64,000 nucleotides of DNA, taken from the IMG/VR virus record IMGVR_UViG_3300031857_000007; one strand, written 5' to 3'. Positions 19,930 through 35,993 of this stretch are shown here, one piece after another. The notes beneath the pieces were generated by a model. It had not been told where the DNA came from and searched no databases. It saw only the letters and a program-made list of their open reading frames with translations. The stretch's first letter is position 1; every line of letters starts with the position of its first letter. Made by a program: the position numbers and the translations under genes. Source of the stretch: a virus (lineage: Duplodnaviria; Caudoviricetes).

Positions 19930-19951
19930 GGGATCGGTTGGCGACTTGTGA

Positions 19952-20009
19952 ATTGTAGCACGAAACGGGGTCACCCCCGCCCTGCGTGTGCCTCAGAGTA
20001 CTGGGCGGC
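19952..20009 (-). promoter_or_regulatory. Early promoter element, degenerate copy
   Basis: TACAAT at 19952-19957; half-site GTGCCTCA starts 30 nt away; GGGG-TGA-CCCC in the spacer. Confidence 0.5.
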
Positions 20010-20141
20010 GATGACGGTAGCGGGCACTCCCCAGTGAACGTAGGAGGAAGGGCGGGAACCGTTCTTCAGTTGATCGGCGCGGGAGATCCATTTGATCTGG
20101 CGGGTCTGGAGGTCAGAGCACATGGCGAGAGGGAAGCGCAT
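19971..20141 (-). CDS. Early hypothetical protein (56 aa)
   Basis: Manual translation MRFPLAMCSDLQTRQIKWISRADQLKNGSRPSSYVHWGVPATVIAAQYSEAHAGRG; downstream of a sigma70 promoter. Confidence 0.55.
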   Translation of the reverse strand: MRFPLAMCSDLQTRQIKWISRADQLKNGSRPSSYVHWGVPATVIAAQYSEAHAGRG

Positions 20142-20165
20142 TGGTCGTCTGTCGGTTGCTTGAGA

Positions 20166-20195
20166 ATTCTACAGGGTCAGGGGGGCAGGGGTCAA
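20166..20195 (-). promoter_or_regulatory. Sigma70-type promoter
   Basis: TTGACC-18 nt-TAGAAT; the -35 box overlaps the TGA stop of the upstream gene. Confidence 0.65.
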
Positions 20196-20374
20196 TACCC
20201 CAACCACACCAGGAACTCACCAGCGTCAACCCCGCCGAAGTCAGAGGTCGTGCCATAGTCGGTGCGGAAGTCATCCCACAGACCGTGCTGTTTGGCAGCG
20301 TGTGCCGCTTCGATCCAATAGATGGTGCCATTCTCAGGGTTGGTGATTTCAGCGATCAGGTCGGGGAAGGTCAT
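20192..20374 (-). CDS. Early hypothetical acidic protein (60 aa)
   Basis: ORF directly downstream of the promoter element at 20400-20458. Confidence 0.7.
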   Translation of the reverse strand: MTFPDLIAEITNPENGTIYWIEAAHAAKQHGLWDDFRTDYGTTSDFGGVDAGEFLVWLGY

Positions 20375-20399
20375 CGGTTGCCTTGCGGTTGACTCTGTA

Positions 20400-20458
20400 A
20401 TTCTACAGGGTCAGGAGCGCGATCCACAGGCGGCGGGGGACACTTGGCAAATTGTCTC
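20400..20458 (-). promoter_or_regulatory. Early promoter element
   Basis: TAGAAT at 20400-20405; palindrome GGGACACT-tggcaa-ATTGTCTC at 20437-20458; gap 31 nt. Confidence 0.65.
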
Positions 20459-20566
20459 TGCCTGCTTCTCTTGATATGAATTAATTGTGGCAGTGGCAGA
20501 CTGTACAAAAGTGGAGGCAATTGCAATGCAGAAGATTGCAAACATTGAAGGGAGAATTGCTCGCAT
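20411..20566 (-). CDS. Small predicted membrane/secreted protein (51 aa)
   Basis: Manual translation MRAILPSMFAIFCIAIASTFVQSATATINSYQEKQAETICQVSPAACGSRS; hydrophobic N-terminus. Confidence 0.5.
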   Translation of the reverse strand: MRAILPSMFAIFCIAIASTFVQSATATINSYQEKQAETICQVSPAACGSRS

Positions 20567-20590
20567 TGTACTTATAAAATTAATGTCAGA

Positions 20591-20758
20591 TCAGAATTGA
20601 ATCGCGGTCAAAGTAGGGGCACTGATTGAAGCATAATGTGCGGCACAATCGTTGATGTTCTCCTGTTCAATGTCGCTGGTGATAGTTTCCAGAATCTGGA
20701 GAATGTCGGATCCGTTGTTACCTTGACGCAGAAGGGAAAGAGCCAGTTCGCGGGACAT
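20591..20758 (-). CDS. Early hypothetical protein (55 aa, probable start MSRELA)
   Basis: C-terminal part of track ORF 20591..21019; the upstream part overlaps the real gene at 20823..21068. Confidence 0.55.
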   Translation of the reverse strand: MSRELALSLLRQGNNGSDILQILETITSDIEQENINDCAAHYASISAPTLTAIQF

Positions 20759-20822
20759 TTGATCAAAAAAAGTTAATGTTTGGCGGAGTCTTTTTTGGGC
20801 GCTGCCATTCCCATTGTTCAGG

Positions 20823-21068
20823 TTAGAATGCCACCAATTGATCCAGATCCCATTGTGGCACAACCTGAACCTCAGCATAGGTGCTGGCGTTCTCTGCCAG
20901 CCAAGAATTGATGTGGCGGGTGGTGGTGGCGCTCCACTTGTGCTCTGTCCGCATCCAACCCTTACCAGGCACCAGAGCGGCGACAGGGGTGGAATAGGAG
21001 AACAGAACCTCAGTGCCATCCGCGAGGGAGACTTGAGTTTTGTTGCTGCCGATGGCGGAGACTTTCAT
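20823..21068 (-). CDS. Early hypothetical protein (81 aa)
   Basis: Protein-like VLFSYSTPVAA...WSATTTRHINSWL; follows a promoter element. Confidence 0.75.
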   Translation of the reverse strand: MKVSAIGSNKTQVSLADGTEVLFSYSTPVAALVPGKGWMRTEHKWSATTTRHINSWLAENASTYAEVQVVPQWDLDQLVAF

Positions 21069-21091
21069 GGCGGGTTGCCTGAACTGAGATC

Positions 21092-21151
21092 AGTATAAAG
21101 GGTCAGGGTGGGGGATCGGTGTCCCCCTTGTGCCAGTGCCTCAGTCGGCAT
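21092..21151 (-). promoter_or_regulatory. Early promoter element
   Basis: TATACT at 21092-21097; GTGCCAGT-gcctca-GTCGGCAT at 21130-21151; spacer hairpin GGGGGA-caccga-TCCCCC. Confidence 0.75.
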
Positions 21152-21332
21152 AAAGGGAGTTGAAATCCTCCACAAACTCCAGCGCCTCATCACCCGTCAT
21201 GCGGGAGATCATTTCACGGGCGATCGTTTCCCAGGAGTAGTGATCCGCCAGATCACAGATCGCCTCACGGGCATCGGAAGCGTAGCGGTGAGCGGCGGTG
21301 ATCTGAGCGTAGGTCATTTCCAGGCGGGACAT
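21141..21332 (-). CDS. Early hypothetical acidic protein (63 aa)
   Basis: ORF lies between two promoter elements; its stop codon is inside the next palindrome. Confidence 0.7.
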   Translation of the reverse strand: MSRLEMTYAQITAAHRYASDAREAICDLADHYSWETIAREMISRMTGDEALEFVEDFNSLYAD

Positions 21333-21355
21333 GGTAGATCGGTTGAACTGAGATC

Positions 21356-21414
21356 AGTATAAAGGGTCAGCGGTGCCCCCATATGGGTCTGGTGGACAGT
21401 GCCTCAGTTGGCAC
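21356..21414 (-). promoter_or_regulatory. Early promoter element
   Basis: TATACT at 21356-21361; TGGACAGT-gcctca-GTTGGCAC at 21393-21414; shares 26 identical nt (gaactgagatcagtataaagggtcag) with the copy at 21081. Confidence 0.75.
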
Positions 21415-22300
21415 ACTGGAAACGTCCGCTGTTGAAATTATGATAGGAGAACACCTCACGATTCACGAGTTTGAACATACCAAACTCATTGGTCATTACA
21501 TAACCCTCAGCGTCAATACGATTGCCGTTCACATAAGCAGCAGGACCATAATTGCGACACAAGTATACACAATCATCTTTGATAGACTTAACCAATGCCC
21601 ACAAGCGAATCAGGTTAGGATCACAATCAAAGTCCTCAGCAGCAACCTGTTCGCCAGCACGAATGCAGGCGTTGATTTGTTGTTTGATCTTTGCTGCTTC
21701 CTTATCAGAAACAAACTCACAAGCGGTAGACATTTGGCGGGCAAAGTCCACAACTTCTTTCACATCAGCAAACGATTCTTGATTGTAAAGAATGTATGCT
21801 TCAGGTTTCACAAACTTAACAGTTTCAGTATCATTCCAGATCGCACGGTCAGGCATTGCAACTGCTTCGCGCAGATCATTCTCTGCAAAGTAGCAAGTGT
21901 GAGGGGCAATGATAATCTGCTGAGAAACTACCTCAGAAAACTTGTAAGTAATCGTGTTGGGAGTATACTCATCGCTACCGCCAAAACCAATAAAATCACC
22001 TTGGTAGACAGTATTGGTGCGAGGAAGATAATCAAAGCAAGCATGAAGAATAGACGCAACCTCACCTTGATAGTGTTGATCAATTTCTTCATGAGAGTGA
22101 GCAATGCGAATCTTTTTCTTGTTAAAGACTGCTTTCGTTCCTACAAAGAACTCACCGTTTGCAGGATCAATTCCCCACACAATTGCGGGAGCACCATCAA
22201 TCTTAACGCTCAAAGTGCCAGGGGCAATGAACCAATCAAGACACGAAAGATCACCAGTGAGAATGGTATCTTCGGGGTGTTCGAGGTGTGTGTTTTTCAT
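21404..22300 (-). CDS. Conserved phage protein with a KxDG nucleotidyltransferase/ligase-like motif (DUF6267-like)
   Basis: 298 aa with NTHLEHPED, LSVKIDGAPAIVWG and VYQGDFIGF. Confidence 0.6.
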   Translation of the reverse strand: MKNTHLEHPEDTILTGDLSCLDWFIAPGTLSVKIDGAPAIVWGIDPANGEFFVGTKAVFNKKKIRIAHSHEEIDQHYQGEVASILHACFDYLPRTNTVYQGDFIGFGGSDEYTPNTITYKFSEVVSQQIIIAPHTCYFAENDLREAVAMPDRAIWNDTETVKFVKPEAYILYNQESFADVKEVVDFARQMSTACEFVSDKEAAKIKQQINACIRAGEQVAAEDFDCDPNLIRLWALVKSIKDDCVYLCRNYGPAAYVNGNRIDAEGYVMTNEFGMFKLVNREVFSYHNFNSGRFQCAN

Positions 22301-22306
22301 GCTCTT

Positions 22307-22365
22307 AGTATGGCAGAGAATTGAGCGGATCGCAAGAGGGCGTGTGCCAGTTCTCAGAGTGCCCC
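22307..22365 (-). promoter_or_regulatory. Early promoter element
   Basis: CATACT at 22307-22312; GTGCCAGT-tctcag-AGTGCCCC at 22344-22365; gap 31 nt. Confidence 0.7.
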
Positions 22366-22680
22366 ATTCTCATCAAGAATTCCCCACTGAATGGTTCCCT
22401 GATACATGCCAATGTAACGGTTTCCAATACTCAAACCAACGATTTCATCTTCACTATCACCAATCAGATTGACACTGAAATAGAAATAGTTGCTGATAGA
22501 ATCGGGGGTGCGGAATTTCATAACCTGAATTTTCTCCCAAAGAATAGTAGCAATTGCAGCAACGAATGCTGCGGCAGTGATTACAAAACTCTTCATATCT
22601 TGATAGAGTTTCTGATAATCAACCTCCTGCAGTTTCACGAACAGATCATCAGCAGGCGGGAAAGATTTGGTCAGTTCCAT
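22354..22680 (-). CDS. Hypothetical protein with one predicted TM helix
   Basis: 108 aa; hydrophobic segment FVITAAAFVAAIATILW. Confidence 0.65.
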   Translation of the reverse strand: MELTKSFPPADDLFVKLQEVDYQKLYQDMKSFVITAAAFVAAIATILWEKIQVMKFRTPDSISNYFYFSVNLIGDSEDEIVGLSIGNRYIGMYQGTIQWGILDENGAL

Positions 22681-22701
22681 TGTGAAGAAAAGGTGAAAGA
22701 A

Positions 22702-22875
22702 TCAGTTCAGGAAGGTTGCGGGATTGCCATAATCGGCAATGTGATGACCATTCAAACGAATCTCAGCGTAACCGAATTCCTCTGCCAAATCATAACAGAG
22801 ATCGTATGCCTGACCCTCATCACTCACAGACTGCGACTCATAAGGGGCAGAGGGGACGATAACTTCGTAACGCAT
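22702..22875 (-). CDS. Early hypothetical acidic protein (57 aa)
   Basis: Manual translation MRYEVIVPSAPYESQSVSDEGQAYDLCYDLAEEFGYAEIRLNGHHIADYGNPATFLN. Confidence 0.7.
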   Translation of the reverse strand: MRYEVIVPSAPYESQSVSDEGQAYDLCYDLAEEFGYAEIRLNGHHIADYGNPATFLN

Positions 22876-22897
22876 GAGGTTTGTTTGAACTGAAGTC

Positions 22898-22956
22898 AGT
22901 ATAGGGGGTCAGCGGTGCCCTTGTGGGGTTTTGGTGGACAGTTCAGGGATTGGACC
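22898..22956 (-). promoter_or_regulatory. Early promoter element
   Basis: TATACT at 22898-22903; TGGACAGT-tcaggg-ATTGGACC at 22935-22956; gap 31 nt. Confidence 0.7.
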
Positions 22957-22977
22957 GCCGCGGCCACTCAGTTTGTG

Positions 22978-23154
22978 TCACTTAACCACGATACGGTTCA
23001 ATTCTTCAAGTGTGCTCACATTCCAGTTGGCAATGTCACCATGGGGAGCATACAGTTTGCTATACCATTCCCCATACAATTCAGGATTAATGAGTTGCAC
23101 CTTCTCTAGAGTTTCTGCAATCTCAACATTCAAATTGTGTTGGAAATTAGTCAT
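22978..23154 (-). CDS. Hypothetical protein (58 aa)
   Basis: Manual translation MTNFQHNLNVEIAETLEKVQLINPELYGEWYSKLYAPHGDIANWNVSTLEELNRIVVK. Confidence 0.6.
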   Translation of the reverse strand: MTNFQHNLNVEIAETLEKVQLINPELYGEWYSKLYAPHGDIANWNVSTLEELNRIVVK

Positions 23155-23345
23155 CAACCCTCCAGCAGTTCGGGGTAGTATTCTTCACACTCGGTGATCA
23201 ATTCTTCATCAGAATACTTAGCATAACCCTCATCCAGATAATCATAACAAAGCTGCGTCATTGTCTTGAGATCCATGTCATCCAACATCTGCTGAATGAG
23301 TTGATCTTGGAGTTCAGAACGGTTCATGTTAGTGTCAGTTGCCAT
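23154..23345 (-). CDS. Highly acidic hypothetical protein (start may be 23327)
   Basis: 63 aa, D/E-rich; coupled to its neighbours. Confidence 0.7.
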   Translation of the reverse strand: MATDTNMNRSELQDQLIQQMLDDMDLKTMTQLCYDYLDEGYAKYSDEELITECEEYYPELLEG

Positions 23346-23448
23346 TGATGATGTTCCAGAATTGTTTAGAGTTTGCCCCAGGAATGTGGGGAAGTTTCTT
23401 CTCCCAGTATCCTGTGATGTGACGATACCAAACTTTCAGGATGTTCAT
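23335..23448 (-). CDS. Small hypothetical protein (37 aa)
   Basis: Manual translation MNILKVWYRHITGYWEKKLPHIPGANSKQFWNIINGN. Confidence 0.5.
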   Translation of the reverse strand: MNILKVWYRHITGYWEKKLPHIPGANSKQFWNIINGN

Positions 23449-23451
23449 GAT

Positions 23452-23577
23452 TCAGTAATCGTATTCGCCGTTAATGTAATCCGTGAGGTTAAAATCTTCT
23501 TCTTTCAGTTCAGGAATGTCCAGATCGAAGATCTCACCAGGCATGTCTTGAATCTCTTGCCACATTTCATCAAACAT
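23452..23577 (-). CDS. Very acidic mini-protein (41 aa)
   Basis: Manual translation MFDEMWQEIQDMPGEIFDLDIPELKEEDFNLTDYINGEYDY; GAGGGAG RBS upstream. Confidence 0.65.
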   Translation of the reverse strand: MFDEMWQEIQDMPGEIFDLDIPELKEEDFNLTDYINGEYDY

Positions 23578-23602
23578 TGGTGTCTCCCTCAGGAACAAAC
23601 GT

Positions 23603-23660
23603 AGTATGGCACCGATCAGGGCACGAATCAACCGATGGTGGACAGTACGGGAACTGGCTC
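23603..23660 (-). promoter_or_regulatory. Early promoter element
   Basis: CATACT at 23603-23608; TGGACAGT-acggga-ACTGGCTC at 23639-23660. Confidence 0.7.
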
Positions 23661-23785
23661 ACGAACCCTCTGGCTGCCGCCCAGGAGGCGCTAGAATGGG
23701 GTCACAAGCGAATGAGGGGTGAGGTAGCCCTGCGGACGACAATTATCGACACTGAAGCAGCTTTGAAATATTAATTGCAAAGTAT

Positions 23786-23812
23786 AAAAAAAGGGAGGCA
23801 TTGTGCCCCCCC
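23786..23812 (-). terminator. Intrinsic terminator after the ArdA-like gene
   Basis: GGGGGGCA-caa-TGCCTCCC-TTTTTTT. Confidence 0.8.
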
Positions 23813-23819
23813 ATTTGAT

Positions 23820-24257
23820 TCAGTGATCGCGGAAGATATGCATCGAACGATAAGAAGTTCCATCGTTACATGCAGTGAAATCATAACGCAACGAAGTCTC
23901 CCAAGTTGCTTCCCAATCCACTACAATTCCAGAAGGGATATCATAACCCATATCATCATAGAAAGATTCAGCAAACTCTGCCTCATCATTGAAGCAACCT
24001 TGATAACGCTCATCACAGCATTCAATATCACTCATGCAACCAACTTCGCCAATGAGAGCATCAACTGCCTCGTATCCGATTGCTTCACCACAACGAACAT
24101 ACTCCTCGTAATAGTTACAGAAGTCGTCCTCATTGTAGGTATCAATGAACTCCAACATGTCATCCAGAGCGTAGTTATCTTCCAGACGCTCTTCAATGAA
24201 CTCTACAGTTTGAACATTCAGAGTTTCTTTGTAGTTAGCGGTCAGGGTGATCGACAT
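23820..24257 (-). CDS. ardA: ArdA-like antirestriction (DNA mimic) protein
   Basis: 145 aa, extremely acidic; C-terminal YQGCFNDEAEFAESFYDD...VDWEATWETSLRYDF resembles the ArdA C-terminal pattern. Confidence 0.65.
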   Translation of the reverse strand: MSITLTANYKETLNVQTVEFIEERLEDNYALDDMLEFIDTYNEDDFCNYYEEYVRCGEAIGYEAVDALIGEVGCMSDIECCDERYQGCFNDEAEFAESFYDDMGYDIPSGIVVDWEATWETSLRYDFTACNDGTSYRSMHIFRDH

Positions 24258-24372
24258 GATGAAAAGAATTAGTTTGGGTTGGGGTGCTGATCTCCCCTAC
24301 AGCATGTGAAGGATCTTACCTAGGACCTTTCCGATATCGGTGGTTTCGCTAGGAGGGTTCGCTTCTGAAAGT

Positions 24373-24431
24373 AGTATGGCAGCAGTGGGGGGAGAAATCA
24401 ATCCCCCTTGTGCCACTTGTCAGACCGTCAC
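24373..24431 (-). promoter_or_regulatory. Early promoter element
   Basis: CATACT at 24373-24378; GTGCCACT-tgtcag-ACCGTCAC at 24410-24431; spacer hairpin GGGGGA...TCTCCCCC. Confidence 0.7.
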
Positions 24432-24632
24432 ACGTCCTTCCATTTCACGCAATTGATTCATGATATCAAATAGTTCCATTTCGTCCATATCAGCACTCTC
24501 CATATCTACGGGTGCAAATTCATTCAAATTCACGCTACCGTCAGAATAGATTGGAGCATAGAACAGTTCGTTACTATCTTCCTGCGACAGGGTGAATACA
24601 CAACCGTAGTTGGTGGCAGTGAGAAGAATCAT
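24420..24632 (-). CDS. Early hypothetical acidic protein (70 aa)
   Basis: ORF between two promoter elements. Confidence 0.7.
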   Translation of the reverse strand: MILLTATNYGCVFTLSQEDSNELFYAPIYSDGSVNLNEFAPVDMESADMDEMELFDIMNQLREMEGRVTV

Positions 24633-24653
24633 GGGGCAATCCCTGACGACTTG

Positions 24654-24714
24654 AGTATCATTGCACCCAGCTGCCCCCTGTGGGCGATTTAGTGGACACT
24701 TGAACTAGTGGCAC
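24654..24714 (-). promoter_or_regulatory. Early promoter element
   Basis: GATACT at 24654-24659; TGGACACT-tgaact-AGTGGCAC at 24693-24714. Confidence 0.65.
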
Positions 24715-24842
24715 AATGATACTTGATATTGGCAATCGGTGCGCTATGATCGAGAATCGATAGGATTAATGTAGATTAATCAGAATATTGGGAGGAGAAT
24801 ATAATTCTCCTAGCATGAAGAAATATTAATATTGGGATAGAG

Positions 24843-25004
24843 TTACCAAATACGGTCTAGACTCAGATCTTCAATATATGCCTTCACACGCTCATCGCCA
24901 CCCAATTCAAACAGTTTTTCCCAATCAATATCGCGTGGGTTAAAGTCTTGAAACACGTCTAGTTCTAGAGTAATACGATACTTGTTTTTCTGTGCGTAAA
25001 CCAT
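24843..25004 (-). CDS. Hypothetical protein (53 aa)
   Basis: Manual translation MVYAQKNKYRITLELDVFQDFNPRDIDWEKLFELGGDERVKAYIEDLSLDRIW; has its own sigma70 promoter. Confidence 0.65.
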   Translation of the reverse strand: MVYAQKNKYRITLELDVFQDFNPRDIDWEKLFELGGDERVKAYIEDLSLDRIW

Positions 25005-25030
25005 AGGATCTAGGTGAAGTAACTATGTAC

Positions 25031-25059
25031 ATGTTACATGAATCTAGAAGGAATGTCAA
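25031..25059 (-). promoter_or_regulatory. Sigma70-type promoter
   Basis: TTGACA-17 nt-TAACAT. Confidence 0.6.
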
Positions 25060-25295
25060 GTGCATGGTGTATATATGAATCTCGATATGAATCTAGTTGT
25101 ATATGTGTGAATCTCGATATGTTGATATAATGATATGAATCTAGTTGTATAATGCGAATCTAGATGGGCAATCTAGTTGTATGATGCGAATCTAGTTGAG
25201 TCTAGTTGTGAATCTAGTTGTGAATCTCGAAGGATATATGCGAATCTAGTTGTATAATGATATAACGTTATTGTTATATGATATCATGAATCTAG
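25040..25295. repeat. Array of 13 GAATCT(A/C)G(TTGT) direct repeats (iteron-like)
   Basis: Copies start at about 25040, 25077, 25089, 25109, 25137, 25156, 25169, 25188, 25198, 25210, 25222, 25242 and 25288; spacing is irregular and there is no ORF. Confidence 0.9.
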
Positions 25296-25338
25296 TTTTA
25301 TATGTGCCCGCCTCCGTGTATTTTTGTTTCGGGGGCGC

Positions 25339-25367
25339 TTGACATTTTTTCGGAGTTGTGATACAAT
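25339..25367 (+). promoter_or_regulatory. Near-consensus sigma70 promoter with no downstream ORF
   Basis: TTGACA-17 nt-TACAAT with an extended TG. Confidence 0.75.
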
Positions 25368-25393
25368 GCACGCTAAGATCACAAGACTCTGAG

Positions 25394-25443
25394 GCATTTA
25401 TAAGACATTTATAAGGCATTAATAAGTTTATAAGACATTAAAG
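25394..25443. repeat. Tandem (G/A)CATTTATAAG repeats leading into an AT-rich tract
   Basis: gcatttataag acatttataag gcattaataag tttataag acattaaag. Confidence 0.8.
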
Positions 25444-25564
25444 AACTCAGAGACTCTCTAACAATATAACGATAACATTATAAGAGATAAATCACACAAA
25501 CATATTTAAAAATACATTTATTAATTAATTTAATTGTTTTTTACCATAAAATAAGCATTTTTAG

Positions 25565-26047
25565 TCATAATTGTTCAATAGTATATTCTTTCCATTCTTT
25601 AATCTTACAATCATTCAATAGGAATTGCATCTTATTATAAGGTGCTCTTGGTTTGCGAATTAACCTCATATTGGTTTGTTCTAATAGAGTATTACCTTTC
25701 TTTGTATTACAAGAACTACATGCTACTACAAGATTTTCCCATGTATCTTCTCCACCTCTACATTTAGGAATAACATGATCAATTGTCAATCGTTGTGTAG
25801 ATTCGCAATATTGACAAGTATGATTATCTCTCTTGTAGATCATTGATCTTGATGGTTTGTTCATAACAATCTTAGAAAATGGTACTTTCACATAACTTAA
25901 AAGGCGTATGACTCTATTCGATAATATCTGTGCCTTTTCTTTTAAGAGAAGAACTATTGCTCTTTTCCAACTGGTTATGTTTAATGGTTCATAGGAAGAG
26001 TTTAATACCAAGATACTGGTATTTGGTTGTATCGTTATACCATTCAT
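25565..26047 (-). CDS. HNH endonuclease (McrA-like)
   Basis: CQYC...TIDHVIPKCRGGEDTWENLVVACSSCNTKKG. Confidence 0.9.
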   Translation of the reverse strand: MNGITIQPNTSILVLNSSYEPLNITSWKRAIVLLLKEKAQILSNRVIRLLSYVKVPFSKIVMNKPSRSMIYKRDNHTCQYCESTQRLTIDHVIPKCRGGEDTWENLVVACSSCNTKKGNTLLEQTNMRLIRKPRAPYNKMQFLLNDCKIKEWKEYTIEQL

Positions 26048-26060
26048 GACTCACACTCAT

Positions 26061-26378
26061 TTAATCTCTTTGTCTCCAATCGTCGGGTTTGTCGCCTGTG
26101 AAGAAATCAATTATATCGTCTGCACTATTGAAATTTGTTCTATGATTTGAGGGATCGGGATCACCTAAATCTAATGCATTCATGAAGTCGTCCAAACTCC
26201 CTTCTTGCATATTTGGATTAGCAGCACGTCTTCTTGCTTGTCTTAGAATAGTTGCAGCAGAACGATTTGATTTTGCTAACTTCTCTGCCCATATCATATC
26301 CTCTAAACTTACTTCTTCATGCATTGCGATTTTATCACAGATTGCCTCAAGGCGAAGGCGATATTGCGTAGAGAGCAT
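26061..26378 (-). CDS. Hypothetical protein, paralog of 33668..33985
   Basis: Shares MLSTQYRLRLEAIC and EVSLEDMIWAEKLAK with that copy. Confidence 0.8.
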   Translation of the reverse strand: MLSTQYRLRLEAICDKIAMHEEVSLEDMIWAEKLAKSNRSAATILRQARRRAANPNMQEGSLDDFMNALDLGDPDPSNHRTNFNSADDIIDFFTGDKPDDWRQRD

Positions 26379-26398
26379 GTGTGTTATTCAAATAATGT

Positions 26399-26968: not shown

Positions 26969-27021
26969 GTCTATTCTCTTATTCTATTACTATTTAATAC
27001 AGTTTATGATATTTTAATGAT

Positions 27022-27408: not shown

Positions 27409-27418
27409 TACATTTCAT

Positions 27419-29210: not shown

Positions 29211-29781
29211 TATTTTCCTCCTTCAGTTTTCTCACTCGTTCAAGAAACTCATTACCTTGTTCATACAATCGTGTAATCAAATCCTTAATATCTTCAATAT
29301 CAATCACATTATACTCAACATTCATATTCTCACAACGGAGGGCATCAATCATACATTCAAGTGTCATTGCCTGCATATGTTCTGGGGTGATTGGTGTACC
29401 GTGAGGAAGACCAGAACATTCTTCATTATAGAAGTGATTATATCGTCTCAGGACAGTATCAGCACGTTCTCTACTTTCCCATTCTTCCTTCTCAATCTCA
29501 GCAAGTTTCAGCATAGCATCACCGTGCTTCTCATAGAGTTCATCAAGGGCAGCAAGTGCCTTATTTTCTGCCTCTCTTCGTGCTGCCTCTTCTAACATCT
29601 CTTCGTGCGTAAGATTTTCAAGAACAAGGTCTTTTGCAGAATCTTCCATTTTTTTCATATCCTGTTTGTAGATAAGTTCTTTCAACCTCTGTTTGCCGTA
29701 TTCAGTGAGTTCGTGTTTTTTGTTGCGGAGTTCTTCTACTTCTTCTTGTGTGAGACTAACCCACGGCATGTCTTCATTCAT
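29203..29781 (-). CDS. Hypothetical helical/coiled-coil protein
   Basis: 192 aa, E/K-rich. Confidence 0.65.
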   Translation of the reverse strand: MNEDMPWVSLTQEEVEELRNKKHELTEYGKQRLKELIYKQDMKKMEDSAKDLVLENLTHEEMLEEAARREAENKALAALDELYEKHGDAMLKLAEIEKEEWESRERADTVLRRYNHFYNEECSGLPHGTPITPEHMQAMTLECMIDALRCENMNVEYNVIDIEDIKDLITRLYEQGNEFLERVRKLKEENNG

Positions 29782-30004
29782 AATACTCTTTCCTCACACA
29801 TTCTATTTCAAGGTCTTCTACCCTGTCTTGCAAGTCCATAATAAGTTGAAGGATTTTCATAGTATCCAGATTACCATTTTCATCAGCAACAAGAGAAAGA
29901 TATGATTGTTTTATAATCTCTTGCTGTTCTTCAAATGGTTTGAGATACCATTCCTTTCTTTGTTTTTGAGTATATTTGTCCCAACCTAATGGGTTGTATC
30001 TCAT
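29774..30004 (-). CDS. Hypothetical protein
   Basis: 76 aa; coupled. Confidence 0.6.
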   Translation of the reverse strand: MRYNPLGWDKYTQKQRKEWYLKPFEEQQEIIKQSYLSLVADENGNLDTMKILQLIMDLQDRVEDLEIECVRKEYYE

Positions 30005-30513
30005 CGTAGCATCCCCTTAATTTTTTCAAGACAATGATTAAATCCATCCACAAGTAATTCAGTATTTACATTCTGACTTCCTGCTGCTGATTGTTCTTTC
30101 GGCAACCAATCTTCTACCAAATCTACAACATCATTACAAGCATCAAAATCATAACCAAGTTCATCTACCAATCTATTAAAAAGTTTTTGTGCTTCGTATT
30201 TTTTCACCAACCTATTCACAACCTCATCCATAGGTTTTGGATTATCTTTCTCATCCCATTCTACTTCATCATAATGTTCAGGTTCATCAACCACTCCATC
30301 CTCCTTTGCTGCATTCCAACCATACCGAAAGATATTCCAGGATTGAATATCAAATTTAGTTGCATCTGAACCAGTTTCAGGATACTTGCCGAAAACTTCT
30401 TTATATGCTTCTTCTACTGGTGTCTTTGGTTCTTCTACTCTCTTATACTTCACACCCATAATGGTTGCGTAGTCTCCTTCTATAAGAACTTTTGAGATGT
30501 CGGTTTCAGTCAT
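30001..30513 (-). CDS. Hypothetical protein
   Basis: 170 aa; coupled. Confidence 0.65.
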   Translation of the reverse strand: MTETDISKVLIEGDYATIMGVKYKRVEEPKTPVEEAYKEVFGKYPETGSDATKFDIQSWNIFRYGWNAAKEDGVVDEPEHYDEVEWDEKDNPKPMDEVVNRLVKKYEAQKLFNRLVDELGYDFDACNDVVDLVEDWLPKEQSAAGSQNVNTELLVDGFNHCLEKIKGMLR

Positions 30514-30779
30514 CGGTCTTCATTATAAAATACAAATCCTGTTGCTGTTTTTTCACAGTAGTAATAATACTCTTGGAATACACCATTCATAAAATCTTCA
30601 AGTGTTTCCAGTTCATCACTACCAGTTGAATGATAACAGTCTAACACAAAATCCTCATACTCACCAACAAAACCACAGAAACGGTCAGGAAACTTTGAAA
30701 TACTTTTATCTGGGAAGAGTTCATAGTAAGTATCTAATACTTCCTGCCCATATTCTTCTAGGATTTCTTCAAACGTCAT
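30510..30779 (-). CDS. Acidic hypothetical protein, possibly ArdA-related
   Basis: FCGFVGEYEDFVLDCY pattern, D/E-rich. Confidence 0.55.
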   Translation of the reverse strand: MTFEEILEEYGQEVLDTYYELFPDKSISKFPDRFCGFVGEYEDFVLDCYHSTGSDELETLEDFMNGVFQEYYYYCEKTATGFVFYNEDR

Positions 30780-30954
30780 AAGGTTGCTGTGGGTCTTTTT
30801 TCCAAATTTCTTTGTAGATAATCCAAGGTTCTTCTTGGTGGGTCATTTGAGCAGTCCAGTGGTATCCATTCTCATCAACAGCATCAAGATAATGAATGCG
30901 TGTCTTGGGATCAATTGTGCGTGTGATGTGTGTGAATTTAACTCGTTCAATCAT
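30769..30954 (-). CDS. Hypothetical protein
   Basis: 61 aa; coupled. Confidence 0.6.
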   Translation of the reverse strand: MIERVKFTHITRTIDPKTRIHYLDAVDENGYHWTAQMTHQEEPWIIYKEIWKKDPQQPYDV

Positions 30955-31277
30955 TTTACTCCAAGCAAGTCCTTTTCAAAATCAGTCAAACGAGCAAGAA
31001 GTTCTTGTCGTTTTTGTTCTTTGATTTCTTCTTGTCGTTTTTCTTCCAACATTTCATCAAGAACATCCATCATAGCATCAAAACAATAATTACCCTTGTT
31101 CCAATCACTCTCACCTTTTTGAGTGATGACTACCTTTTCATCAAAGTTTTCTGGACGGAACATTTCATAGATACGAATTACATAATCACCATCTTTGTCC
31201 TCACGAACCTCAACACTTAAATCAAGTTGGTTTGCTTTGGAAAAGAGTTTGAGAAGTTCAGTTTCTCTGATAGTCAT
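30951..31277 (-). CDS. Hypothetical protein (probable start MTIRE)
   Basis: Start adjusted to follow the upstream stop codon. Confidence 0.6.
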   Translation of the reverse strand: MTIRETELLKLFSKANQLDLSVEVREDKDGDYVIRIYEMFRPENFDEKVVITQKGESDWNKGNYCFDAMMDVLDEMLEEKRQEEIKEQKRQELLARLTDFEKDLLGVK

Positions 31278-31278
31278 T

Positions 31279-31452
31279 TCAGTTCTGGTGTTGTTTGAGG
31301 TGAAGTTGGATACATTCCATAACATTATCAAGAGTTAGAGCACTACCCTCATAGTAGTAATCCATATTCATTACATCTGTGACTTTGAGTTTGTAATAAA
31401 AATCTCCATCAGAAGAATACTGATGAATGATGATGTCAGTTTCGTAGTTCAT
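31279..31452 (-). CDS. Early hypothetical protein (57 aa, start MNYETD)
   Basis: ATG lies 21 nt downstream of a TATAAT box. Confidence 0.65.
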   Translation of the reverse strand: MNYETDIIIHQYSSDGDFYYKLKVTDVMNMDYYYEGSALTLDNVMECIQLHLKQHQN

Positions 31453-31473
31453 CGGTTTGTTTCTTATGAAGTC

Positions 31474-31531
31474 ATTATAAGGCAAAAGGAGCACCTGTGG
31501 GATGCTCCTGTGCCAGTTCTTCAAGTGTCCT
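31474..31531 (-). promoter_or_regulatory. Early promoter element with an embedded terminator
   Basis: TATAAT at 31474-31479; GTGCCAGT-tcttca-AGTGTCCT at 31510-31531; spacer AGGAGCA-loop-TGCTCCT-TTT. Confidence 0.75.
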
Positions 31532-31784
31532 ATTTCAGTTCATCTTCCTCTTTTTGAATAGCAGAGATAGCATTTAGAAACTCCAAACCATATTTACCTA
31601 CAACCCAAGCATCTTTATCCTCAAAGAACCTAGTACCGATGGTTCTCATATCATAGCCTTCTGTGCTTTTATTGAAGAAAGCAACGACATAGCAACTATC
31701 ACCAGAGTCGTGAGTATACCACTTGACGAGTTCATACTTGTTGTTGACTTTACTCCAACGAAACTCTATGTTACGAAATCTCAT
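31530..31784 (-). CDS. Hypothetical protein
   Basis: 84 aa; stop codon overlaps the palindrome edge. Confidence 0.65.
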   Translation of the reverse strand: MRFRNIEFRWSKVNNKYELVKWYTHDSGDSCYVVAFFNKSTEGYDMRTIGTRFFEDKDAWVVGKYGLEFLNAISAIQKEEDELK

Positions 31785-31957
31785 TCTTCTTCCTCTTCAT
31801 AAGGGAACATTTCATCATACTCTTCATCAGTGAGAGTCAGATACTGAACATCAGCATCTTTGTGCTCTTCGGCATACACTAACTGATAGTGAGCAAAACT
31901 ACTTTCAGAAGTGCTAGCGTACTCTATGAGTCCATCAACAATACAAAGGTAATTCAT
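31781..31957 (-). CDS. Acidic hypothetical protein (58 aa)
   Basis: Manual translation MNYLCIVDGLIEYASTSESSFAHYQLVYAEEHKDADVQYLTLTDEEYDEMFPYEEEEE. Confidence 0.65.
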   Translation of the reverse strand: MNYLCIVDGLIEYASTSESSFAHYQLVYAEEHKDADVQYLTLTDEEYDEMFPYEEEEE

Positions 31958-32169
31958 TAGAGCACCTCCCAGTGTGCATCAGATTTGTCACCGAAACGAT
32001 TAGTTCCAGTTCTTGTACTAACCCAAAAAAAGTATTTACGGTTTTCTGATGCCAAGAATAACTCACCACCAGTGTCCTGCTCTACAATACAGACAGGATT
32101 GTTTCCCATGATATTTGCTAATCTATTCTTCGCCTTGCTGCTTTTGGGTCTTACGGTTACTCTTCTCAT
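31957..32169 (-). CDS. Hypothetical protein
   Basis: 70 aa; coupled. Confidence 0.65.
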   Translation of the reverse strand: MRRVTVRPKSSKAKNRLANIMGNNPVCIVEQDTGGELFLASENRKYFFWVSTRTGTNRFGDKSDAHWEVL

Positions 32170-32386
32170 TTTGGATCTCCAGTTTCAGTTTGCGAATACC
32201 AGTAATAAAGTAAGCAAAATCACGGGATTCAGTCACCCGTTTTTCTTCACCACAGACACCACATTTACCATTCCAGACAGATGAACAACCGACTGAATAA
32301 ACACCATAAGTTTGACCACAATCCATACAAGTGGTGCCTGCCTGCTCAAGTCGTTTGAGTAGTGCCTTCTTCTCTTTGAGAGTCAT
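32123..32386 (-). CDS. Zn-ribbon-like small protein (start MTLKEKK)
   Basis: CMDCG...CGVCG; follows a promoter element. Confidence 0.6.
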   Translation of the reverse strand: MTLKEKKALLKRLEQAGTTCMDCGQTYGVYSVGCSSVWNGKCGVCGEEKRVTESRDFAYFITGIRKLKLEIQNEKSNRKTQKQQGEE

Positions 32387-32407
32387 AGGGGCGTTTCGTA
32401 TAATGGT

Positions 32408-32465
32408 ATTATAGGGCATCAGGAGGCGTCTTCAACGTCCTCTGTGCCAGTTTCCAAAGTGTCCT
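32408..32465 (-). promoter_or_regulatory. Early promoter element embedded in the upstream CDS
   Basis: TATAAT at 32408-32413; GTGCCAGT-ttccaa-AGTGTCCT at 32444-32465. Confidence 0.7.
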
Positions 32466-32790
32466 CATCGCCAGTAAGGTCTTTAAGTCTATTCATAAAG
32501 TCTTCATCAAGTGGATAGACCTTTTCTTCACCACGATCAATCCTATCACACATCTCCATCAGATATTCTAGAAACTCTTTGGGATATGTTTCATCCATAT
32601 TAATGCTGCACCAGAACCACTGATAACATTCTTCATATGGATCGTCGTTTTTCAGCAGAGCATAATCAGCATAGTTTCCACTGATGAGATCTCTCCACAT
32701 CTTAAAGTTGTTCCAGATCTCTCTCCAACCAGTCTGGAAACAATGTCCGAAGTAATACTCAAACCAGTTCAGTTTTTTCTTCATCAACAC
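32419..32790 (-). CDS. Hypothetical protein
   Basis: 123 aa; coupled. Confidence 0.65.
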   Translation of the reverse strand: MLMKKKLNWFEYYFGHCFQTGWREIWNNFKMWRDLISGNYADYALLKNDDPYEECYQWFWCSINMDETYPKEFLEYLMEMCDRIDRGEEKVYPLDEDFMNRLKDLTGDEDTLETGTEDVEDAS

Positions 32791-33071
32791 TCATCCATTC
32801 CAAGATAATCAGTCTCTTTTTCATCCACTTCCTCTAAATGGTCCCATCTCCAAGTGCGGGAAAGCAAATCAATATCAAACCCAAACTTATATGCCCAGAA
32901 GAGAATACCTAAAAGACCATTACTTCCCATTGTAATCTGAAGATAAGGTGAAGAAGGATAATCATTCCAACTTACAGAAAACTGAAACAAACTCCATCGT
33001 TTAATATTAACAACTTGAACATAAACTTCGTGTCCAAAGTCATAGCGATGCTTAAATTTAATTAGATTCAT
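32784..33071 (-). CDS. Hypothetical aromatic-rich protein
   Basis: 95 aa; coupled. Confidence 0.6.
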   Translation of the reverse strand: MNLIKFKHRYDFGHEVYVQVVNIKRWSLFQFSVSWNDYPSSPYLQITMGSNGLLGILFWAYKFGFDIDLLSRTWRWDHLEEVDEKETDYLGMDEC

Positions 33072-33241
33072 TGCTCTTTAATAACACAAGATGTAGTGCA
33101 TTTAAGGTCACCAGAAGATCCAGAGACCGTAGATGTATGGTGTGGTGTTTTTTCTGGTGTCAGATTATATGATACAATAGCGGACACAAAAAACGCAAGT
33201 GCAGGGATTGCGACATATTGTAGATAAGTTTTACTGCTCAT
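33068..33241 (-). CDS. Small membrane-anchored protein, paralog of 27893..28060
   Basis: HTSTVSGSSGDLKCTTSCVIK is shared with that copy. Confidence 0.7.
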   Translation of the reverse strand: MSSKTYLQYVAIPALAFFVSAIVSYNLTPEKTPHHTSTVSGSSGDLKCTTSCVIKEQ

Positions 33242-33416
33242 TATTGTTTTCCTCAAAGTCAAACCATTCATACAGAGAGTTCATCGCACCATCAACCACA
33301 CAATCAACCACAGCATCTTCGTGTGGGTTCTCTACGTGTTTATGGGCACGATTGTATCCATAACGGACACCTTCTTCCAGTGCCATCTCCAATACCTTAC
33401 GAAAGTTAGGTTTCAT
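33231..33416 (-). CDS. Hypothetical protein
   Basis: 61 aa. Confidence 0.65.
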   Translation of the reverse strand: MKPNFRKVLEMALEEGVRYGYNRAHKHVENPHEDAVVDCVVDGAMNSLYEWFDFEENNNEQ

Positions 33417-33417
33417 A

Positions 33418-33621
33418 TCAATAAGGAAGAGATTTCAGACCATCCAGAACTTCCTGAAAGCGTTCGGCACGACTCTTGTGGTGCTCTACATTCTCCTCAA
33501 GCACACTCACAATATCGTCCAGGACAACATCCAGAGACGCATCAGTATCAAAGTATTGTTGGATTGCTTCGGCAAGATACCGCCGCCGACTCCATTCCAT
33601 ACTATAGGGTTTGTAGTCCAT
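33418..33621 (-). CDS. Hypothetical protein
   Basis: 67 aa, downstream of a consensus promoter. Confidence 0.65.
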   Translation of the reverse strand: MDYKPYSMEWSRRRYLAEAIQQYFDTDASLDVVLDDIVSVLEENVEHHKSRAERFQEVLDGLKSLPY

Positions 33622-33642
33622 AATCAGAGTGTATATGCGGGT

Positions 33643-33671
33643 ATTATAAAGGTTTTTTCAGATATTGTCAA
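33643..33671 (-). promoter_or_regulatory. Consensus sigma70 promoter
   Basis: TTGACA-17 nt-TATAAT. Confidence 0.8.
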
Positions 33672-33985
33672 TCTCTTGTTCGCCAATCGGTTTCGTCATC
33701 ATCACGTTTAAACCAATCATGCAGTTCATCTGGGTTGTCAAAACCTCTTCTACCAAATCTTTCGTGCCCTAAACCACCAATATCCATTGAGTTTAGGAAA
33801 TCATCCATTTCATCCATATTGGGATTTTCCGCTTTACGTCTTGCCTGGCGGAGCATTGTTCCAGCAGAGCGATTTGCCTTTGCAAGTTTCTCTGCCCAGA
33901 TCATATCTTCTAAACTTACTTCTTTATGAAGTACAATCTTCTCACAGATTGCTTCCAGTCTCAATCTGTACTGCGTAGAGAGCAT
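33668..33985 (-). CDS. Hypothetical protein, paralog of 26061..26378
   Basis: Same length (105 aa) and a near-identical N-terminal half. Confidence 0.8.
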   Translation of the reverse strand: MLSTQYRLRLEAICEKIVLHKEVSLEDMIWAEKLAKANRSAGTMLRQARRKAENPNMDEMDDFLNSMDIGGLGHERFGRRGFDNPDELHDWFKRDDDETDWRTRD

Positions 33986-34005
33986 ATGTATTACCAGATG
34001 TAGTG

Positions 34006-34239
34006 TTATTTATTTTTATATTCGTCCATTAACTCTTTTGCGAGTTTCATAGAACGACGCCACATTAAATATTTTACCACAGGATTACGTGGATTGTTTA
34101 ACAACCACCACTTTTGTTTCTCATAGTTAGACTTTGCTAACTTAAGCACATAATAAAAGGCAGCAGCGATACTATCATCTGTTGCGATAAAGTATGCCGC
34201 TACTGCAAATACGATAAACCAAGCATAATAAGACATCAT
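34006..34239 (-). CDS. Small membrane protein, paralog of 26399..26638
   Basis: WWLLNNPRNPVVKYLMWRR. Confidence 0.75.
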   Translation of the reverse strand: MMSYYAWFIVFAVAAYFIATDDSIAAAFYYVLKLAKSNYEKQKWWLLNNPRNPVVKYLMWRRSMKLAKELMDEYKNK

Positions 34240-34261
34240 CTAGGTCTCATAGTTTTATTAT

Positions 34262-34507
34262 TTAACCAAGAAATTGATCTAGACTGGAGACCGATGCGCC
34301 TTTTGCGGACTTTTGAATGTAGGTTTTGGCGGACTTGTAATTGTTTGCTAGATGAACCTGCTGTCCGTTGTGAATGATAATAAACTTTTTACCAAATGGC
34401 ACTGCTGCCCACATACCATCTTTAGTGACATAACCTTGTGGATCTGATGGTTTTGGATTTAAGATTCCTGGACGATCTACAAAAGGTTTCTGAAAGTTTT
34501 CGCTCAT
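34262..34507 (-). CDS. Hypothetical protein
   Basis: 81 aa. Confidence 0.65.
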   Translation of the reverse strand: MSENFQKPFVDRPGILNPKPSDPQGYVTKDGMWAAVPFGKKFIIIHNGQQVHLANNYKSAKTYIQKSAKGASVSSLDQFLG

Positions 34508-34647
34508 CCGAATACAGCGGTCACACCAATAACTTTAGCACTTGGATTACGTGCTAGAGCAGTCCGCCTGGCATCATCATAATCACGTGCCTCGACAATC
34601 TCATCAAAGACTTTGCCAGCGACATAGAGTTGGACTTTGCAGCGCAT
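34504..34647 (-). CDS. Hypothetical protein (47 aa)
   Basis: Manual translation MRCKVQLYVAGKVFDEIVEARDYDDARRTALARNPSAKVIGVTAVFG. Confidence 0.65.
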   Translation of the reverse strand: MRCKVQLYVAGKVFDEIVEARDYDDARRTALARNPSAKVIGVTAVFG

Positions 34648-34686
34648 TAGAGTTTCTCCTGATGTGTAGGTAGTATAGCAGAAAAG

Positions 34687-35916
34687 TCAGCGCCTGACAA
34701 TGCTGACGGCAACCTCACCTTGCTTGAAGATGATGTCCACCACATTCTGGACTGCCTTCGCAGTGCCCGTAGATGCCTTGTCAAAGACCGGGCAGACCAC
34801 CAGACCATAGGATTTAGTGTAGGACGACAGGTCGCCTGCCTGAATGGCGCCAGAGCGGATTCCAGCGGCGTCTTGGGGGTGCAGACGCAGCGTCCGACCA
34901 ACGGTCTGACCGATGCCCACAACGTCCATAGAGCGCAAGAACACGACCGCTTCCAGAGCAGAAATGTTGATGCCTTCTGCCAGAATGCTGTGATGCAGGA
35001 CCACAAACTTTTTGTCAGGGTCTTTGCCCCAAGCATTCAGAGTGTCAAAAAACACCTCACGATTGACCTTCTGCCCATCAATAAATGCACCGTGCTTGGC
35101 AGTAATGTGCAGCACAGAGTAACCTTGCTCGGCAATCTGGTCTGCAAAGTCAGATTCAGACAGCAGAGCAATGATGTGGCGAGTTGCCTTTGCACACACC
35201 AGAATCTTATCGACAGGATTGTCCTGAATGATTTGCATCAGATACTCACAGTCCCGTTGAGCAATATCCTCACCCTTGACGGACAGACGCATTGGAGCAG
35301 TAATCACTTTGGGAGGAATGATATAGCCACCCTGTACCAATTCAGGAGCAGGAACTTTGGCGATGATATTACCGTAGACAGCAACATCATTCATACCAGG
35401 TTTGGCAACGGTGGCAGAATACTTGGGAGTTGCAGTAAAGAAGTAGCAACGCTTTGCTTCAGCAGCAAAATGCTCTACAGCAGGAAAGAAGTGACGTTGA
35501 ACGCTATTGTGTGCCTCATCAAAGTAAATCGTATCCACCTCAATATCTGCCTTTGCAAGTTGCTGCAGAGAATTGTAAGTGGTGAAAATCAGTTTGTGAC
35601 CTTGAGTTTGCTCATACCAAGTGCGAATCGCATTGGGACGAGTGCTGCTGAAGTGATGAGTCTCACCACTGTGAATGTGCATCACAGAAGCATTAGTGAT
35701 AAACTCAAGGTATTCAGCAGACAACTGCTCTGCCAGGAGGATGCGCGGCGCCGTCACTACAATAGTCTTGGGGGTGCTAGACTGAAACACACGAATAGCA
35801 TCAAAAATGCCCACGTTGGTCTTACCACCACCGGTAGGAAACACACAGATACCTTTGAGATGCTGTGCCAGAGCATCCAGAGCAACTTGTTGGTGAGGGC
35901 GAAGTTGGTACATCAT
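34687..35916 (-). CDS. SF2 DEAH-box helicase (ResIII-like)
   Basis: PTGGGKT (Walker A), DEAH, ILAEGIN and QTVGRTLR motifs. Confidence 0.9.
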   Translation of the reverse strand: MMYQLRPHQQVALDALAQHLKGICVFPTGGGKTNVGIFDAIRVFQSSTPKTIVVTAPRILLAEQLSAEYLEFITNASVMHIHSGETHHFSSTRPNAIRTWYEQTQGHKLIFTTYNSLQQLAKADIEVDTIYFDEAHNSVQRHFFPAVEHFAAEAKRCYFFTATPKYSATVAKPGMNDVAVYGNIIAKVPAPELVQGGYIIPPKVITAPMRLSVKGEDIAQRDCEYLMQIIQDNPVDKILVCAKATRHIIALLSESDFADQIAEQGYSVLHITAKHGAFIDGQKVNREVFFDTLNAWGKDPDKKFVVLHHSILAEGINISALEAVVFLRSMDVVGIGQTVGRTLRLHPQDAAGIRSGAIQAGDLSSYTKSYGLVVCPVFDKASTGTAKAVQNVVDIIFKQGEVAVSIVRR

Positions 35917-35935
35917 CTCTCAATTCAATACACAT

Positions 35936-35993
35936 ATTATAGCAGCAAAAAAGGGGTCTTGCGACCCCCCTGTGCCAGTTTGTCAAGTGTCTT
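35936..35993 (-). promoter_or_regulatory. Early promoter element with an embedded intrinsic terminator
   Basis: TATAAT at 35936-35941; GTGCCAGT-ttgtca-AGTGTCTT at 35972-35993; spacer GGGGTC-gcaa-GACCCC-TTTTTT. Confidence 0.75.

Follow-up and report, generated by a model that had tools for sequence, protein, structure and literature searches.

The window analyzed here is a 64,000-nt stretch of the virus record IMGVR_UViG_3300031857_000007 in IMG/VR, and it forms part of a T4-like cyanomyovirus genome. Between positions 19952 and 35993, it carries 12 copies of a short unit in which a 22-bp quasi-dyad stands 30 to 33 nt upstream of a -10 hexamer. With a probability of about 0.75, we regard these units as early-type promoter cassettes of this phage. 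The dyad and its distance to the -10 hexamer recur in other cyanophages, and each dyad half matches the half-site of CGRE1, a palindrome in the yfr2 promoters of cyanobacterial hosts. PlmA, the host protein that binds CGRE1, may be the factor acting on the phage dyad.

Anatomy and spread of the cassette

The window has genes for baseplate proteins of the gp6 and gp8 types, a helicase, and an HNH endonuclease, together with two tRNAs. Its few relatives at the nucleotide level are Synechococcus phages, and near-identical DNA is present in freshwater and lake metagenomes from more than 10 studies. The region from 17 to 36 kb, with the helicase, the small open reading frames (ORFs), and gp6, is syntenic with the gp55-gp93 cluster that lies upstream of the baseplate gene gp6 in Syn9. 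Because the minus strand carries nearly all genes of the window, the cassettes are to be read on that strand. An earlier reading of the same DNA (here, the original prediction) had proposed the promoter copies, which stand, with their reading direction corrected to the minus strand.

In this direction, the quasi-dyad (kkGmCAsT-N6-AsTGkCmy) stands directly behind the upstream stop codon; then come the spacer, a -10 hexamer (TACAAT, TAGAAT, TATACT, CATACT, GATACT, or TATAAT), and the ATG of a small ORF. The hexamer and the ATG are separated by 21 to 25 nt in 10 of the 12 units, by 6 nt in the unit at 22344, and by about 115 nt in the unit at 24410. The genes behind the cassettes encode an ArdA-like anti-restriction protein, the helicase, a DUF6267 protein, and small ORFans, a set in keeping with an early class. 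Eleven units are robust, and one (19988) is degenerate. All 12 palindrome starts given in the original prediction proved correct, and the dyad keeps the predicted distance of 30 to 33 nt from the -10 hexamer in every copy on the gene strand.

A search with the dyad pattern in IUPAC code, allowing up to 2 mismatches, gave 23 strand-matches in the window where 2.3 were expected; none of 100 shuffles contained as many, which confirms the enrichment of the motif. A weight matrix trained solely on 329 units of other phages was run on the window and on 20 shuffles. It recovered 11 of the 12 sites at 19.8 to 41.6 bits, compared with 13.1 bits for the best shuffle. The site at 19988 fell below the dyad threshold of this matrix and is genuinely degenerate; the 21130 site has a weak left half. 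Large structural genes contain two extra pattern matches, at 7125 and 52405, the latter having no -10 hexamer at the right distance. The former (7125-7146, minus strand) consists of the dyad-like sequence GTGACACATTCAAGAGTGTTCC with TAGAAT 33 nt downstream, within the structural gene 2780-14743 (3987 aa); at 17.0 bits, it outscores every shuffle and may be an internal promoter or a chance match.

As predicted, the units lack a -35 box. A sigma-70 scan flagged a -35-like hexamer in only one of the 12 (32444, TTGAAG-16-TATAAT), and the same scan found perfect TTGACA-17-TATAAT promoters elsewhere in the region, for example at 33671-33643. We also considered TTGACA- or TTGAAG-like hexamers inside the dyad spacer as -35 boxes and rejected them, because they lie about 37 to 40 nt from the -10 hexamer and still about 23 nt away even with the hairpin looped out.

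An exact-pattern scan of IMG/VR for GGACACT-N6-ACTGGCAC returned at least 119 loci, although a similar number of single exact matches could arise by chance alone in a collection of this size. Most of the low-GC loci show the whole cassette architecture, and the loci that were fetched hold many further copies. The IMG/VR loci (more than 100 contigs), the window, S-PM2, and Syn9 together gave 468 dyads, 342 of which had a good -10 hexamer 27 to 35 nt downstream, and 338 units were unique. The spacing between dyad and -10 hexamer was 30 nt in 171 and 31 nt in 93 of the 338 units (78% together). Their logo reads ggGACAcTT.a..AACTGGCACA, followed by 30 nt without sequence conservation and then by tgc.cTATAATa. 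About 10 sites lie in the small-ORF region of S-PM2. In Syn9, for which the original prediction had mentioned a motif of this class, direct inspection located units before gp61, gp68, gp73, and gp89/90, within the gp55-gp93 cluster. BLAST of one unit gave full-length matches (93 to 95%) only in Synechococcus phage records (S-SRM01 and S-PM2); its Bacillus and Aeromonas matches were short and weak. Judging from these comparisons, the cassette is common to marine and lake cyanophage lineages, and the window is a freshwater member.

Few viruses of ocean and lake phytoplankton are as abundant as the T4-like cyanophages. Doron et al. 2016 reportedly found a novel regulatory element that governs the transcription of early genes in Syn9 and P-TIM40 and is conserved in T4-like cyanophages. 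The window cassette is very likely this element, because the motif stands in Syn9 at such genes. The two also agree in phage type and in the location of a small-ORF cluster beside the baseplate module, whereas the window differs in its freshwater origin and in nine GC-rich copies, with hexamers such as TATACT and CATACT, in a high-GC island. To our knowledge, the factor acting on the element, which was called novel in 2016, has not been named so far. Our open-literature searches found no paper that prints the phage cassette motif. The freshwater window extends the cassette across marine and lake lineages, and its 58 bp offer a compact marker with which early transcription units can be annotated in cyanophage contigs.

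By comparing the two halves of the dyad among the 338 units, we found that the predicted palindrome is indeed an inverted repeat, yet a quasi-dyad whose commonest form (aGGACACT...ACTGGCAC) is systematically asymmetric and could pair at no more than 4 of its 8 positions. Of the 338 units, 245 have non-complementary bases at half-site position 7, and 72 have complementary ones. By these figures, the dyad does not form a stem in either RNA or DNA. The half-site subtypes GTGCCA.. and GGACA.. are found in both possible orders, in keeping with a binder of two-fold symmetry. The dyad is thus conserved as sequence and not as pairing, each half tending toward a consensus, as would be expected of a protein-binding site.

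The hairpin, which lies within the promoter between the dyad and the -10 hexamer, had been predicted as the third part of every unit. The dyad and the -10 hexamer hold as parts, but the hairpin is a frequent option and not a constant: in the window, five of the 12 units have a clearly stable hairpin (z of -2.7 or lower against shuffles), and four to five have none. Over the 338 units, a strong spacer hairpin (minimum free energy [MFE] of -8 kcal/mol or lower) occurs in 43%, compared with 4% of shuffles; among the 144 strong hairpins, 42 have a T-run behind them, and the spacing to the -10 hexamer is unchanged with or without a hairpin. We also looked in the 5' hairpin arm for a hidden third half-site that would form a host-type, outward-facing pair with ACTGGCAC and rejected it, because the spacer shows no sequence conservation.

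Known activator and sigma factor sites do not account for the motif. In agreement with the original prediction, neither the NtcA (GTA-N8-TAC) nor the CRP (TGTGA-N6-TCACA) consensus appears in the 338-unit logo. Sites of that kind are centered near -41.5, and the dyad is centered near -54, assuming a start 7 nt after the hexamer; the predicted value was near -55. A sigma-54 promoter (TGGCAC-N5-TTGC, 12 nt upstream of the start) was rejected as well: TGGCAC is present, but TTGC does not stand five bases further on in any unit, and the TGGCAC of the phage units lies 30 nt from the -10 box. Cyanobacteria are not known to have sigma-54.

The host PlmA/CGRE1 site and the putative activator

In the mechanism that we propose, the -10 hexamer alone would serve as the core promoter, and host RNA polymerase with its primary sigma factor would presumably start about 7 nt downstream. 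The -35 region is free of sequence constraint, in our reading because promoters of this kind do not use a -35 box, and the free space would often house the terminator of the upstream gene; a GC hairpin occupies it in about half of the copies, and where a T-run follows, the hairpin is a probable terminator. The quasi-dyad, at about -64 to -43, would be the site of an activator that sets promoter strength and timing, and we infer activation in preference to repression. Gene content and homology to Syn9 suggest that the timing is early. The activator would already be present when the DNA enters the cell, and the best candidate is the host GntR regulator PlmA (PMM1637), because each dyad half equals the CGRE1 half-site and the left half is as far from the -10 hexamer as in the host promoters. 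PlmA is a GntR-type protein that occurs, as far as we know, in all cyanobacteria and nowhere else. Host Yfr2 small RNAs, which are induced by stress, are under its control, and it communicates with the PII-PipX nitrogen/energy sensor.

Lambrecht et al. 2018 (PMC6191309) recovered PMM1637 in a pull-down with the CGRE1 palindrome of yfr2 promoters, observed that it shifts CGRE1 in the electrophoretic mobility shift assay (EMSA), and found that it raises the expression of yfr2 promoters in an E. coli reporter. In order to compare these host sites with the phage dyad, Synechococcus genomes were reached via psbA; Yfr2 genes were located as Rfam family RF01701 (Cyano-1) in 5 marine genomes and then in genomes sampled from the 61 of their family. 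We take Cyano-1 to be the Yfr2 family, and the CGRE1-type palindromes upstream of the matches agree with this. The sequence upstream of the host genes is AACTG[G/T]CAC-n-GTG[C/A]CAGTT, found in the yfr2 promoters as AACTGGCAC-A-GTGCCAGTT and variants.

The 9-nt half-site AACTG[G/T]CAC (reverse complement GTG[C/A]CAGTT) is identical in the phage dyad and in host CGRE1, and both stand before a -10 hexamer without an evident -35. With the host promoters aligned on the conserved GTGAGG at the RNA start, the forward half (..CAGTT) ends 42 to 44 nt before the -10 hexamer in 20 of 41 promoters, most often at 43 nt. For the left half of the phage dyad, the corresponding distance is 43 to 44 nt in most units and 43 to 46 nt in the window. 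One host promoter class has the forward half only, followed by a conserved AGCGCC; the WH7803 promoter of this class reads AGGACAGTTGAAGGAGCGCCC, against AGGACACTTGAAGAACTGGCAC for the phage consensus. Both S-PM2 and Syn9 infect WH7803. When a sequence-only model of 60 phage units was run on 95 kb around yfr2 loci, 20 of its 22 local matches fell on yfr2 promoters. A common half-site at the same position seems unlikely to be due to chance. The factor, which the original prediction had left unknown, is therefore no longer wholly so, since the half-sites are those of the host PlmA/CGRE1 site, though their arrangement differs.

Several observations weigh against this reading of the cassettes. The CGRE1 halves face outward and are 1 to 2 nt apart, in a palindrome of 21 to 22 bp, whereas the phage halves face inward and are 4 to 6 nt apart; the partner of the common half lies upstream in CGRE1 and downstream in the phage dyad, and the centers of the whole sites differ by about 13 bp, CGRE1 of marine Synechococcus sitting 7 to 8 nt from the -10 hexamer. 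The host arrangement is absent from the window (one weak match at chance level), and its perfect copies in the hosts are restricted to yfr2 genes. The five host genomes show no enrichment of the phage arrangement, with 4 to 10 matches compared with 20 to 40 for a reversed-pattern control. A search of the five Synechococcus genomes with the phage model at E values up to 10 gave no full-length match except one site in a low-GC island and nothing at yfr2 genes, the likeness being visible only in the local search. In 52% of the phage units, the left half is CACTT and not the host CAGTT. PMM1637 did not shift the yfr5 promoter, which keeps one motif half (PMC6191309), and therefore one common half-site may not suffice for binding; the published assays of PMM1637 cover yfr2 and yfr4 only (PMC6191309). 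A site centered at -54 could also serve a phage-made regulator. Finally, we infer the transcription start and timing in this phage, and the metatranscriptome contigs, which come from three studies and cover parts of 30.5 to 34.7 kb, cannot show RNA starts; strand and level are likewise not visible in them, DNA carry-over is possible, and they speak neither for nor against transcription.

This single full-length match lies at 3227229-3227278 of the Synechococcus MIT S1220 chromosome, the only one in the five genomes, where a low-GC stretch holds the near-perfect phage-type dyad TGGACACTACAGGTAGTGGCAC; it may be phage-derived DNA in a host island.

According to the above comparison, the window cassette is a new freshwater member of a known promoter class, and its link to PlmA/CGRE1 is partly supported. 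We give PlmA (PMM1637) somewhat less than an even chance of being the binder of the phage dyad. Still more tentative is the wider idea that T4-like cyanophages fire their first genes by borrowing PlmA and re-using its half-site in a rearranged, phage-specific geometry, by which early infection would be coupled to, or deliberately uncoupled from, the light, nitrogen, or redox state of the host. The open papers we found that name CGRE1 or PMM1637 do not link either of them to phage promoters. The host comparison names PMM1637 for tests with published reagents, namely the recombinant protein and the EMSA and green fluorescent protein (GFP) reporter of Lambrecht et al. 2018. Should PlmA be the factor, the launch of infection would be tied to a host nitrogen/light/redox sensor; if it is not, an exact copy of a host half-site at an equal distance from the -10 hexamer would still need an explanation.

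Alternative explanations

The dyad might instead be bound by a phage protein, either an activator delivered with the virion or an early or middle product that later shuts the early promoters, the dyad being its operator. A factor with its own geometry would fit the inward-facing N4-6 arrangement, which was not found as such in the five host genomes, and the element is confined to cyanomyoviruses in the one-unit BLAST search, with its full-length matches in S-SRM01 and S-PM2. However, none of the 20 window ORFs scanned, most of them in the cassette region, has a recognizable DNA-binding Pfam domain, in keeping with the original prediction that no regulator is evident. Repressors usually bind across the core promoter and not at -54, and the agreement with host yfr2 promoters in half-site and in distance to the -10 hexamer would call for coincidence or mimicry. 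In addition, a promoter without a -35 box needs help at time zero, ahead of any phage protein. We consider a phage-encoded binder unlikely. Less likely again is that the dyad works in RNA, as a stem-loop at the 3' end of the upstream transcript with a role in termination, processing, or stability, the nearby -10 hexamer being incidental. The position of the dyad directly after the upstream stop codon, followed by a terminator-like hairpin in about half of the copies, would suit such a role, but a stem selects for complementarity, and the commonest form of the dyad and its position 7 show the opposite. Conservation of sequence in place of pairing, the 30- to 31-nt spacing to the -10 hexamer with or without a hairpin, and the occurrence of the half-site subtypes in both orientations likewise contradict it, and we hold this role to be very improbable.

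A further possibility is that the units are chiefly recombination cassettes, providing short homology for the swapping of small genes in the hyperplastic region, as in the case of PeSLs. PeSLs (promoter-early stem-loops) are units of a promoter and a stem-loop between small ORFs in T4, RB49/phi1, and KVP40/nt-1, with a sigma-70 -35 box and the stem-loop upstream of it (Arbiol 2010; Comeau 2014, PMC4122927). Like them, the window cassettes are compact repeats that combine an early-type promoter with a stem-loop between small ORFs of a T4-like hyperplastic region (PMC4122927), and some module boundaries of relatives coincide with them: about 11 homology blocks common to related contigs have one end precisely at the dyad edge 31531/2, and the contigs of relatives diverge at three cassettes (24399/24433, 31531, and 32425). 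Nine units also lie in a 7-kb island of 44 to 53% GC, against 30 to 38% for the genome. Unlike PeSLs, the cassettes do not have the sigma-70 arrangement of -35 and -10 with about 17 nt between them (11 of the 12 lack a -35-like hexamer), their stem-loop is optional and occupies the -35 position, and a quasi-dyad stands further upstream. The association with breaks is not specific, because breaks are as frequent at the cassette-free junctions 33667, 33413-16, 33068-73, and 27021, and recombination leaves the tight dyad sequence, the spacing to the -10 hexamer, and the match to host promoters unexplained. Recombination as the chief function is improbable, between a phage-encoded binder and an RNA stem-loop in our estimate; a role in recombination is compatible with the promoter function and does not replace it.

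Individual units and neighboring sequence features

The features of the 12 units are listed in Table 1, in which the scores are those of the weight matrix trained on other phages.

Table 1. Coordinates and features of the promoter cassettes, all given on the minus strand unless marked (+)
Unit	Span	Dyad	Spacer (nt)	-10 hexamer	Spacer hairpin	Score (bits)	Downstream start or gene	Remarks
12	35936..35993 (-)	35972-35993, AAGACACTTGACAAACTGGCAC	30	TATAAT 35936-35941	GC hairpin then T-run, MFE -14.0, z -3.1	37.3	DNA helicase gene 34687-35916 (putatively driven)	
11	32408..32465 (-)	32444-32465	30	TATAAT 32408-32413	Moderate, MFE -8.4	38.2	ATG 32386, small ORF ending at 32123	Sole unit with -35-like hexamer (TTGAAG), inside the hairpin
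10	31474..31531 (-)	31510-31531, AGGACACTTGAAGAACTGGCAC		TATAAT 31474-31479	Terminator-like, then TTTT, MFE -13.2, z -4.2; flagged terminator 31509-31487	41.6	ATG 31452	Dyad equals family consensus; stop codon of upstream gene overlaps dyad edge
9	24654..24714 (-)	24693-24714	33	GATACT 24654-24659 (weak)		20.5; 30.6 (+)	ATG 24632, 70-aa ORF	Better -10 TATGAT 24745-24750 (+), 30 nt away
8	24373..24431 (-)	24410-24431		CATACT 24373-24378, TGC in front	MFE -11.4, z -2.8	25.0	Leader of about 115 nt, then ArdA-like anti-restriction gene 23820-24257 (phrog_36653, E 2e-44)	
7	23603..23660 (-)	23639-23660	30	CATACT 23603-23608	None significant, z 0.1	20.4; 24.5 (+)	ATG 23577, 41-aa ORF	TAGAAT 23692-23697 (+), 31 nt from dyad
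6	22898..22956 (-)	22935-22956	31	TATACT 22898-22903		19.8	ATG 22875, 57-aa ORF	Left half weak
5	22307..22365 (-)	22344-22365	31	CATACT 22307-22312	None, z -0.1	27.8	DUF6267 gene 21404-22300, ATG 6 nt after hexamer	
4	21356..21414 (-)	21393-21414	31	TATACT 21356-21361		23.6	ATG 21332, 63-aa ORF	Paralogue of unit 3, common ...CTGACCCTTTATACTGATCTCAGTTCA
3	21092..21151 (-)	21130-21151	32	TATACT 21092-21097	MFE -11.8, z -3.5	24.2	ATG 21068, 81-aa ORF	Left half degenerate
2	20400..20458 (-)	20437-20458	31	TAGAAT 20400-20405	None, z +1.8	22.6	ATG 20374, 60-aa ORF	
1	19952..20009 (-)	19988-20009, GCCGCCCAGTACTCTGAGGCAC (remnant)		TACAAT 19952-19957	Strong, MFE -16.4, z -2.7		ATG 19929	Degenerate

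The DUF6267 mRNA is probably leaderless, because its ATG follows the hexamer of unit 5 so closely. The plus-strand hexamers of the unit 9 and unit 7 dyads point into the ORF-free gaps 24633-24842 and 23605-23819, respectively, in which Rfam matched no family. These two dyads may be bidirectional promoters that make small non-coding RNAs. Over the cassette region as a whole, an Rfam search matched no family either.

The high-GC island extends from 18000 to 25000, and its nine cassettes have GC-rich spacers. Its genes match higher-GC viral contigs at 70 to 92% identity, which suggests that the island was acquired from a higher-GC cyanophage lineage. An AT-rich, ORF-poor gap at 25089-25299 (plus strand) holds nine direct copies of GAATCTAGTTGT with 0 to 2 mismatches. 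This cluster adjoins the HNH endonuclease gene 25565-26047 (minus strand), and the rest of the window has matches to the repeat at chance level only; the copies could be iterons, an origin, or a homing-related array.

Canonical sigma-70 promoters also occur among the small genes on the minus strand. The one at 33643-33671 (TTGACA-17-TATAAT) matches at 12 of 12 positions, and further promoters of this type, with the motifs TTGACA-17-TAAAAT and TTGTCA-17-TATACT (TG in front), lie at 19027-19055 and 34672-34700, respectively. By their motifs, these sites are a second promoter class beside the dyad cassettes. Motifs resembling the T4 late CTAAATA are located at 17102-17146, 19003-19068, and 58851-58975. 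Directly 3' of the anti-restriction gene, at 23792-23812 (minus strand), stands the strong terminator GGGGGGGCACAATGCCTCCC followed by T7, and a TATACT comes immediately after it, forming a junction of terminator and -10 hexamer with no upstream dyad.

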